Positions 451 through 41,761 of a stretch of 64,000 bases of DNA are shown here, in pieces; positions within the stretch are counted from its first letter, which is position 1, and every line of letters begins with the position of its first letter. A model generated the notes under the pieces. It searched no databases and had not been told where the DNA came from. It was given only the letters and a program-made list of their open reading frames with translations. A program made the position numbers and the translations under genes. Source of the DNA: an uncultured delta proteobacterium (GTDB lineage: Bacteria > Desulfobacterota > Binatia > Binatales > Binataceae); assembly GCA_963756005.1 (NCBI GenBank), contig CAVWMC010000006.1, forward strand, positions 35,567 through 99,566, read 5' to 3'.

Positions 451-542
451 TGTCATCCTGACGACGGGAGCGCTAGTGACGGGAGGAACGGATCTCGGAC
501 AGCTTCGCGCAAGCGAAGCCGGTTCCGGTTTCTGAAAATCGC
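451..542 (-). repeat. REP/MITE-like intergenic repeat unit, copy A (inverted orientation)
   Basis: The reverse complement matches copy C (41437-41526) with an identical 45-nt core cagaaaccggaaccggcttcgcttgcgcgaagctgtccgagatcc and a terminal ...tcgtcaggatgaca. It contains an internal hairpin gcttcgc-ttgc-gcgaagc. Confidence 0.65.
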
Positions 543-602
543 GAAGCGGTCCTTTGTGGAGGTCGTGCTCACCCTCCGGATTCTTATTGGATGCAGCGAC
601 GC

Positions 603-685
603 AGAACCGGAACCGGCGGCTCTTGCGCCCCGCTGTCCGAGATCCTTCCTGCCGCTTGCGATGCTCGCTTTGTCAGGGGGACACA
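603..685 (+). repeat. REP/MITE-like intergenic repeat unit, copy B (forward orientation, more diverged)
   Basis: cagaaccggaaccggc...ctgtccgagatccttcc...tttgtcagggggacac aligns with copy C. Together with copy A it forms a head-to-head inverted pair. Confidence 0.55.
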
Positions 686-728
686 AAAACTTTGCGGCGT
701 TGCCTAATATCAAAAGATTCGCGAACTC

Positions 729-38583: not shown

Positions 38584-38650
38584 GAAAATCGCGATTAACC
38601 CGCGAATCCAAGGCGAAATCCTTTGCCCGTCATCCCTCCGTCAGGATGAT
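38584..38650 (+). repeat. Degenerate partial copy (D) of the REP/MITE-like repeat, immediately upstream of the IS110 transposase start
   Basis: It shares ...ccctccgtcaggatga and a gaaaatcgcg segment with copies A and C, and contains the hairpin tcatcc-ctccgtca-ggatga. Confidence 0.4.
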
Positions 38651-38737
38651 GAGATGGACCCAGCCCGCGTTCAACGGCTTCATAATGAGCCAGCGATGGT
38701 ACGCGACCATCGAACACGAACTACGGGAGGGTCCGCT

Positions 38738-40959
<2,222 letters not shown>

Positions 40960-41370: not shown

Positions 41371-41436
41371 CGCGCCCCCACTCTCGCGAGGCTAGAAGGC
41401 CGCACCAGCCGCCGCAAGCCAACAAAGGAGCGCTGC

Positions 41437-41526
41437 GCGATTTCAGAAACCGGAACCGGCTTCGCTTGCGCGAAGCTGTCCGAGATCCTTCCAGCCGGTC
41501 GCGTTGCTCCCTCCGTCAGGATGACA
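41437..41526 (+). repeat. REP/MITE-like intergenic repeat unit, copy C (reference copy)
   Basis: gcgatttcagaaaccggaaccggcttcgcttgcgcgaagctgtccgagatccttccagccggtcgcgttgctccctccgtcaggatgaca carries the internal hairpin gcttcgc/gcgaagc. It matches the reverse complement of 451-542. Confidence 0.65.
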
Positions 41527-41761
41527 CAGGAGGCTCGCGATGCACGCTTCGTCAGGAAGTTCCGAGCGCTGCCCACTCCCATCATCCGCTCCCCCTCTAT
41601 TTTAACAGGGACGAAGTCCCGCATCTTTTCTTAATACTGGGTGCAGGGGTCACCCCTGCCGCGGAAGCGTGAAACCCCGAGGGTTTCACATTAAATTAGT
41701 GATCTCCCCTTCCCACCCTGACATGGATCTCTCGGAATGTTACCATTTGCCCGGAGCAACG

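Follow-up and report, generated by a model that had tools for sequence, protein, structure and literature searches.

The closest described counterparts of the repeat family analyzed here, which lies in a 64,000-nt stretch of an uncultured Binataceae genome (contig CAVWMC010000006.1; the whole stretch is called the window), are REPs (repetitive extragenic palindromes) and their composites, the bacterial interspersed mosaic elements (BIMEs) and REPINs, known from Escherichia coli and Pseudomonas together with their RAYT (TnpA_REP) transposase, whose gene is flanked by the repeats in a REPtron. Canonical REPs carry a GT[AG]G tetranucleotide 0 to 2 nt 5′ of the hairpin foot and are described as species-specific (PMC6006769). 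They are also known targets of insertion sequences (ISs) of the IS110/IS1111 type (PMC1525189, PMC11187229, PMC11208160). The repeat of Candidatus Binatus shares much with them. It is a high-copy family of intergenic, GC-rich imperfect palindromes, found singly, in clusters, or as inverted doublets that form long hairpins. It is a mosaic with other motifs, lies at the 3′ ends of transcription units, has neither target-site duplications (TSDs) nor an adjacent transposase, and is a specific target of an IS110/IS1111-family element. It differs from REPs and BIMEs in lacking GT[AG]G, in being a 105-nt composite of three hairpins instead of a 20- to 40-nt palindrome, in forming tandem arrays of half-modules, and in being near-invariant across at least 25 species.

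In Streptococcus pneumoniae, the BOX elements (boxA-boxB(n)-boxC) are modular intergenic repeats with predicted stable secondary structures, a variably tandem internal module, about 100 copies per genome, and no transposase of their own. The Binatus repeat resembles BOX in its modularity, its tandem module, an extrapolated 100 or so loci per genome, and the lack of its own transposase. However, the two are unrelated in sequence and host phylum, and the repeated module is terminal in the Binatus repeat but internal in BOX. We know of no report of a replication-strand bias or of IS110 targeting for BOX. The miniature inverted-repeat transposable elements (MITEs) of the Correia/NEMIS, RUP, and ERIC kinds are likewise small, noncoding, multicopy, and intergenic, can form long hairpins when transcribed, and influence the expression of neighboring genes. 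Unlike them, the Binatus family has no TSD and no parent IS in the loci examined, is dominated by solo half-units, and builds its pairs from two distinct subtypes. With intrinsic terminators, including bidirectional ones, the family shares a GC-rich hairpin and T-run just past stop codons and between convergent genes. In contrast to terminators, its T-run is only 3 to 4 nt long, it carries about 70 nt of additional conserved sequence and structure without a termination role, and it conserves sequence where terminators conserve form alone.

We conclude, with a probability of roughly 0.6, that the family is a REP/BIME- or BOX-like mosaic repeat of Candidatus Binatus/Binataceae whose hairpins probably allow its mobilization in trans and which probably shapes the 3′ ends of mRNAs. 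The initial annotation had labeled it REP/MITE-like. It is indeed a multicopy, intergenic, hairpin-bearing dispersed repeat of REP/BIME character, but it falls outside canonical REPs because it lacks GT[AG]G and is not species-specific, and outside classical DDE-type MITEs because it has no TSD and no parent IS in the loci examined. We file it as a “bacterial interspersed mosaic repeat.”

Anatomy and distribution of the repeat family

A type-1 unit, read on the strand used in the initial annotation, consists of AAGGA, a first hairpin (P1), the linker GATTTCAGAAACCGGAACCG, which contains TTTCAGAAACCGGAACCG, a second hairpin (P2), and a third (P3). P1 is GCGC-TGC-GCGC, occasionally with an 8-bp stem (e.g., GCGCGCG-CAG-CGCGCGC or GCCCGCC-CGA-GGCGGGC). 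P2 is GCTTCGC-NNNN-GCGAAGC; its stem of 7 to 8 bp and loop of 4 nt lie within the range of REP palindromes (basal stem of 7 to 20 bp and loop of 2 to 5 nt). P3 runs from CTGTC-CGAG-ATCC through about 28 nt to GGAT-GACAG, with ends given as TGTCATCC...GGATCTCGGACA, and the conserved foot of the repeat is (T)GTCA. The 7 nt outside the TGTCATCC end are T-rich family-wide (T in 80% at position −1 and in 61% at position −3); either this T/A-run belongs to the unit or insertion favors T-tracts. In type-2 units, GGATTCTCATTGGATGCAGCGACGCAGAA stands in place of the P1 region. A sigma-54 reading of the type-2 5′ end (TGGATGCAGCGACGCA) was dropped, as only the GG/GC spacing fits.

Tandem arrays of the 3′ module are common and reach 11 or 12 copies, with a period of about 36 or 68 nt. 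At the shorter period, the distal half of P3 alone repeats (11 copies in locus L087 and 8 in L061), while at the longer one the repeat spans the 3′ arm of P2 through P3 (loci L103 and L066). Head-to-head pairs are composed of an inverted type-1 and a forward type-2 unit. There are 15 simple “<>” clusters of this kind, the window pair at 451-690 included, and 22 when pairs with extra modules are counted; such inverted doublets are what is expected of BIMEs and REPINs. The two units of a pair stand 0 to 50 nt apart in other genomes. Since these pairs recur in many genomes, the one in the window is a standard composite and not a coincidence.

In the window, a profile built from 102 relatives matched three full units and no more: 445-554 (−), 582-691 (+), and 41423-41530 (+) (E-values, 1e-25 to 1e-32). 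These are copies A, B, and C; the fourth copy of the initial annotation, D, is a solo 3′ module only. The 45-nt core CAGAAACCGGAACCGGCTTCGCTTGCGCGAAGCTGTCCGAGATCC reported to be common to A and C occurs exactly at 490-534 (−) and 41444-41488 (+) and nowhere else in the window, where shuffles expect 0.00 matches. A repeat finder matched A to C in inverted orientation over 60 nt (92%) and B to C directly over 81 nt (81%). It also bore out the head-to-head arrangement of A and B, whose arms at 490-530 and 605-645 are inverted and 85% complementary over 41 nt. When folded, the region 440-700 containing both units formed a single long hairpin (−141.8 kcal/mol; z = −9.3). Two lengths needed correction: the unit measures about 105 to 110 nt and not 90 nt, which narrows the gap between A and B from 60 bp to about 23 nt (555-577). 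The hairpin gcttcgc-ttgc-gcgaagc, thought to be in every unit, is present in A and C, but B has gcggctc-ttgc-gccccgc, in which 5 of 7 pairs form and two are compensatory relative to A and C. Copy B ends in gtcagggggaca. The features of the three units are as follows.

451..554, minus strand: copy A, full type-1 unit (core match, repeat finder, profile search, and alignment)
451-501, plus-strand reading: copy A P3, with TGTC at 451-454, ATCC at 455-458 ... GGAT at 490-493, CTCG, and GACA at 498-501
502-519, plus-strand reading: copy A P2, GCTTCGC-GCAA-GCGAAGC
520-528, plus-strand reading: copy A CGGTTCCGG
529-540, plus-strand reading: copy A linker TTTCTGAAAATC
540-548, plus-strand reading: copy A P1, CGC-GAA-GCG, with C540 both the last base of the linker and the first of the stem
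555..577: inner spacer between A and B, with a small local hairpin GGAGG-N10-CCTCC
578..690, plus strand: copy B, full type-2 unit, with the 5′ variant GGATTCTTATTGGATGCAGCGACGCAGAA in place of P1
616-633, plus strand: copy B P2, GCGGCTC-TTGC-GCCCCGC, 5/7 pairs
634-683, plus strand: copy B P3, degenerate, with GGGG instead of GGAT
684-690, plus strand: copy B A-rich tail
41425..41526, plus strand: copy C, full type-1 solo unit
41431-41439, 41459-41476, and 41477-41526, plus strand: copy C P1 (CGC-TGC-GCG), P2, and P3, respectively
41533..41559, plus strand: second, degenerate tandem 3′ module (GCTCGCGATGCACGCTTCGTCAGGAAG) after copy C

A terminator-like hairpin and T-run (TGTGGCGCCCGCG CTTTTGTTTTTTT) at 426-450 of the window adjoins the outer end of copy A.

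We scanned one genome per species with the pattern CCGGAACCGG-N14-18-CTGTCCGAGA and obtained at least 107 stretches. Among the matches listed, about 97 are true members, from at least 25 Binatus/Binataceae genomes; these genomes are labeled Candidatus Binatus, Binataceae, or “uncultured delta proteobacterium” MFD metagenome-assembled genomes (i.e., Binatota). The remaining 10 or so listed stretches are chance pattern matches in unrelated taxa, without the rest of the unit. The proposal that the family is genome-specific is refuted by this near-identical unit in at least 25 species-level genomes. The core is clearly neither confined to the window loci nor a piece of coding sequence, and the central idea of the initial annotation therefore stands.

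Across the loci examined, a profile search gave 222 module matches in 110 clusters. The complete chromosome OY970324.1 carries at least 22 blocks, about 0.78 Mb of flanking sequence held 13 extra clusters (about one per 50 to 60 kb), and the window carries three units and one module in 64 kb. Extrapolated from the densities of the extra clusters and of the window, a genome would carry roughly 100 loci. A complete, typical type-1 unit was also seen on a 6.8-kb contig predicted to be viral (L175, 6140-6240; IMGVR_UViG_3300048799_000072), which could be a Binatus prophage or phage or else a misclassified chromosomal fragment. At the gathering score, Rfam called two tRNAs alone in the window and nothing for the repeat; at permissive E-values it gave only miRNA-precursor models, far below threshold and due to the long palindrome. 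A literature search on the motif strings and on Binatota repeats found nothing relevant.

Covarying hairpins, turnover, and IS1111-type insertion

Pairing in the proposed hairpins was counted on an alignment of 120 sequences, with shuffled and slid partners as controls. Of the cells, 92.1% paired, compared to 84.6% for shuffled and 28 to 39% for slid partners. Double changes were found at eleven pairs, and the covariation score was 0.168 versus 0.059, a value reached by 0 of 500 shuffles. Because the rows of the alignment are often related by descent, this shuffle-based significance is inflated, and more trust can be placed in the slid-partner control and in the multiple independent pair types. 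In about 30 of 120 copies, two positions of P2 change together from T-A to G-C; A-T and C-G occur there as well, and 93% of the pairs in 57 distinct P2 hairpins are Watson-Crick. In P3, some copies have ATTC:GAAT, ATGC:GCAT, or CACCC:GGG in place of the inner stem ATCC:GGAT, which in the L103 array is lengthened to ATCCCGG:CCGGGAT. Taken together, these data show that P1, P2, and P3 all matter, all with compensatory base changes, at the level of either DNA or RNA. RNAalifold extended P2 by an invariant CGGAC/GUUCCG, with the single variable base (T/A/C) as a predicted bulge. On the reverse-complement strand (the F strand), 33 of 57 P2 variants have a GNRA or GNNA loop, and the loop of P1 reads GCA or GAA.

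The family turns over at some sites and is stable at others. At an orthologous intergenic site between ArsC-like and amidase genes, L104 has a unit where L097 has 28 unrelated nt; thus, presence/absence polymorphism exists. For 41 of 110 clusters (37%, in a small sample), a positional orthologue was found in another species, and copy C is fixed in five same-species assemblies, with one single-nucleotide polymorphism (C to A in CTGTCCGAG) in two of the five. Many sites are therefore old and stable. The check for TSDs proposed in the initial annotation found a direct repeat of at least 4 bp at 1 of 15 pairs, with 0.5 expected, i.e., no TSD.

Copy D had been read as a degenerate copy at 38584-38650 directly beside an IS110 transposase. 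The sequence is that of the family, and D shares the exact 16-mer CCCTCCGTCAGGATGA with copy C; however, it covers only about 36 nt (38614-38649) and is a solo 3′ module split by the IS. The adjacency is likewise real, although the element is of the IS1111 type and sits inside the module.

38614..38649, plus strand: copy D, solo P3-type module, left part (GAAATCC...CCCTCCGTCAGGATGA), interrupted by the IS after GGATGA
38650..39643, plus strand: IS1111/IS110-type insertion, 994 bp, with left subterminal repeat ATGGACCCAGCCC and a DEDD transposase from 38738; 3′-truncated
39644..39649, plus strand: copy D remainder (ATGACA), on the far side of the IS

The subterminal inverted repeat of this IS is ATGGACCCAGCCC/GGGCTGGGTCCAT, and ATGA stands at both junctions (38646-38649 and 39644-39647). 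In five same-species assemblies, the IS is absent and the site GGATGACA is intact, reading uninterrupted through ...CCCTCCGTCAGGATGACACGATCC... A metagenome scan found 67 relatives of the IS. At least 15 of these have, without exception, the left junction G(G/A)ATGA^TGAGATGG at a hairpin-module foot; the module is either GAGATCC...GGATGA of the main family or a related GGGATTC-stem-loop-stem-GAATGA; L109 has both junctions and, downstream, tandem modules. The empty sites within the species and the filled site in the window prove that copy D is a real solo module and that an IS1111-type element inserts specifically at the module foot, GGATGA^CA.

The window IS matches its relatives over residues 1-298 only, and the full element is about 1.6 kb in L109. 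Its right junction nevertheless still exactly adjoins the original target, which suggests an internal deletion up to the IS end or an assembly artifact. An exact-protein look-up of its transposase returned no record. Simpler REP-like hairpins of the form (C)GGGATTC-stem-loop-stem-GAATGACA (e.g., GGGATTCTACGCG-AGGA-CGCGTAGAATGA) were seen in soil metagenome contigs L111-L123, L137, and L138, where they are the insertion sites of IS relatives that are 65 to 94% identical. This points to a wider module superfamily with a common ...ATGACA foot.

Gene context, polarity, and competing explanations

Gene context was called with a crude, purpose-made caller based on GC content at third codon positions (GC3). 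About 92% of element bases lie outside called open reading frames (ORFs), and the window copies are all intergenic, as the initial annotation had it. Forty clusters are flanked by convergent, 38 by co-directional, and 12 by divergent genes, while background gaps of at least 100 nt split 72/158/81; the clusters are enriched between convergent genes, where 14 of 22 pairs also lie. Solo units point their GTCAGGATGACA end toward the 3′ end of a gene in 49 of 65 cases. In co-directional settings, 24 units are antisense and 6 are sense, and a unit often starts 0 to 40 nt from a stop codon. The neighbors are ordinary metabolic genes such as those of the SDR, LLM, and acyl-CoA dehydrogenase families. 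A link to a particular gene family or transposase was rejected, as all-against-all clustering of 783 ORFs showed common metabolic families alone. In the window, the A/B pair lies between two minus-strand genes, one for a luciferase-like oxidoreductase (3′ end at 729) and one for an ABC transporter (start at about 213), and copy C lies in a divergent yraN-like/gatC intergenic region.

The units also have a polarity relative to base composition. In 67 of 87 clusters (p = 4e-7), the F strand coincides with the strand whose third codon positions are C-rich, and this GC3-strand bias persists without the two adjacent genes (59/86; p = 7e-4), independent of the neighbor-gene bias. The GC3 skew term changes sign in domains along multimegabase contigs, as replication-related skew would. 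The measure is noisy at 8 kb and within the 64-kb window, and the inferred gene-strand bias is nil. On OY970324.1, orientation compared to raw 8-kb GC skew was suggestive, without a clean two-replichore pattern; the GC3 measure is the stronger. Unit polarity is likely but unproven to be replication-oriented.

Under the mosaic-repeat reading, a trans-acting, host-encoded activity that recognizes hairpins on single-stranded DNA would make or keep the copies, with a RAYT-like HUH protein as the candidate enzyme. Slippage of modules and recombination between them would contribute as well, and the family would spread without the target duplication of cut-and-paste transposition. Its 3′ module can be amplified in tandem, and its units can be joined head to head into long palindromes such as that at 451-690. 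In sequence, TTTC, TTTT, or TCTC comes after P2 and its extension, and on the opposite strand ATTTC comes after P1. GC-rich hairpins with TTTC or TTTT just after genes would probably lie in, or define, mRNA 3′ ends, as a terminator or an exonuclease barrier in both directions. Since the hairpins flank the quasi-palindromic TTTC(A/T)GAAA, a hairpin and then UUUC would be met from either side.

Several results weigh against this reading, beginning with the crude gene caller behind the context statistics. GT[AG]G is absent at every hairpin foot on both strands (GGA^GCGC, ACCG^GCTTCGC, GACA^GCTTCGC, and TGTC^ATCC, with the caret at the foot). About 60 columns are near-invariant in at least 25 species-representative genomes, contrary to the species specificity of REPs; this constancy and the orthologous positions are harder to square with recent selfish spread than with purifying selection or concerted evolution. 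No Y1/HUH/RAYT or other mobilizing gene was found in the approximately 1.1 Mb examined, which consists of partial genomes. The Y1 search itself (tblastn with an unverified IS200 TnpA query, plus a scan for an HUH...Y motif) gave no matches but is weak given so little sequence. Given the skew polarity, the strand whose loops are GNRA/GNA lies on the presumed template of the leading strand, contrary to the IS608 rule if that strand is the active one. Single units fold no better than shuffled sequence (z of −0.1 to −1.65). Mismatches are balanced, with 36 G.T versus 36 A.C overall and 5 versus 6 in P2, so the functional strand is not callable. A strand call made from wobble pairs in the RNAalifold table (17 versus 4) was retracted after this full count. 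A standard terminator scan with a cutoff of at least 5 T in 8 returned none of the hairpins, whose T-tract is short, and some copies are directly preceded by a canonical terminator (window at 426-448; L071), which makes a terminator role redundant there.

The main rival, favored by the cross-species constancy and positional conservation, is a cassette selected by the host as a terminator, insulator, or protein-binding site. In its cis-acting RNA form, a bidirectional terminator or 3′-UTR (untranslated region) stabilizer, multiplicity would reflect function and not mobility; we consider this unlikely. P2 with CGGAC/GU(U)CCG would precede UUUC in one direction and P1 would precede AUUUC in the other, and the linker TTTC(A/T)GAAA between the hairpins would stop transcripts from either side. 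The enrichment between convergent genes and the placement of units 0 to 40 nt from stop codons agree with such a role, as does the orientation relative to the adjacent gene (49/65; 24 versus 6). So do the strong sequence conservation in at least 25 species, the positional orthologues of 37% of clusters, and the extension of P2 by its invariant arms, with the variable base as a predicted bulge. On the strand co-linear with the upstream gene, moreover, the loops are GNRA/GNNA in 33 of 57 P2 hairpins and GCA/GAA in P1. However, the U-tract is of 3 to 4 U and often TCTC, the standard terminator scan is negative, and some units follow a canonical terminator. Twelve clusters, copy C among them, occupy divergent promoter regions, and it is hard to see what tandem arrays with as many as 12 half-modules would do as terminators. 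Wobble counts give no RNA strand preference, and presence/absence polymorphism occurs at an orthologous site.

A related possibility, which we regard as quite improbable, is that the units form a host-maintained, replication-oriented three-hairpin cassette at hundreds of gene ends that is not selfish and whose polarity is set by fork direction and the adjacent gene. If so, the cassette might, for example, serve as a transcription terminator or insulator for head-on genes or as a binding site for a nucleoid or topology factor, and its conservation across species would come from a dedicated binding protein and not from transposition.

It is very unlikely that the pair is the true element, i.e., a DDE-type MITE of the classical kind, about 235 bp in length, that has long terminal inverted repeats (TGTCATCCTGAC...GTCAGGATGACA) and solo units as its decayed halves. 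The long imperfect palindrome (z = −9.3), the recurrence of “<>” in other genomes, and the outer ends TG...CA, as in many IS families, would suit a MITE. The lack of a TSD already refutes this for the copies examined. Solo units, which have no terminal inverted repeats, are about three times commoner than pairs and equally well conserved, the halves are consistently of different subtypes (type 1 with P1 and type 2 without), and tandem half-module arrays do not fit such an element. In the loci examined, we found no transposase gene bounded by such ends and no parent autonomous IS with matching termini; the nearby IS1111-type element has different ends.

Both this MITE reading and one in which the units are CsrB/RsmZ-like sponge RNA genes or cis-acting CsrA-binding sites are essentially excluded. 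The sponge reading is extremely improbable: each 3′ module does carry GUCA-GGA-UGAC (up to 12 per array and spaced every 36 nt in tandem), which includes the CsrB repeat CAGGAUG and resembles the CsrA/RsmE consensus, but GGAT covaries with the upstream ATCC, placing GGA in a stem and not a loop, units are mostly antisense to flanking genes so that read-through RNA would carry UCC and not GGA, no conserved promoter lies upstream of the units, some 100 loci per genome are unlike any Csr/Rsm small RNA, and csrA was not found in the sequence examined (weak evidence, as this is less than 1% of these genomes).

Further intergenic elements and significance

Two other hairpin families were observed. 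The first is a highly conserved intergenic motif, CTGGGTGCAGGGGTCACCCCTGCC..GGAAGCGTGAAACCC-N4-6-GGGTTTCACATTAAAT, at about 41633-41692 of the window and in 25 copies in 19 of the loci examined (e.g., L001 4453, L010 7736, and L037 4562 and 6128), mostly upstream of genes. Its second hairpin covaries (GTGGAACCC/GGGTTCCAC and GCGGAACCC/GGGTTCCGC), and Rfam has nothing that matches it; the motif may be a leader or regulatory RNA as yet undescribed, or else a site for protein binding. The other family is a hairpin GGTTCCCCTTCCC-NNNN-GGGAAGGGG followed by TTAGGGGTTAGG, with 16 to 34 copies in 14 to 24 loci. It often adjoins the main element (e.g., L001 5179, L040 on the minus strand, L073, and L082), and none was seen in the window. 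Separately, serS (window 39534-40959, minus strand) is split into two overlapping ORFs, as it is in L176 and L177, while L178-L180 have an intact 439-amino-acid gene; the split is probably a long-read frameshift error rather than a pseudogene.

For Binatota, an uncultured phylum, the main family at about 100 loci per genome and at least two further hairpin families make up a noticeable share of intergenic sequence. Such repeats will confuse assembly, binning, and the prediction of noncoding RNAs or terminators. The 45-nt core is a near-perfect marker for Binatus/Binataceae contigs, and the clean empty and filled sites of the IS1111-type element offer a natural set of targets on which bridge/seek-RNA targeting can be studied in a new lineage. 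The family combines REP-like behavior with constancy across species, positional conservation, and a double orientation bias, toward the neighboring gene and toward GC3 skew. It thereby bears on whether REP-type elements are parasites, symbionts, or domesticated structural parts of the genome.

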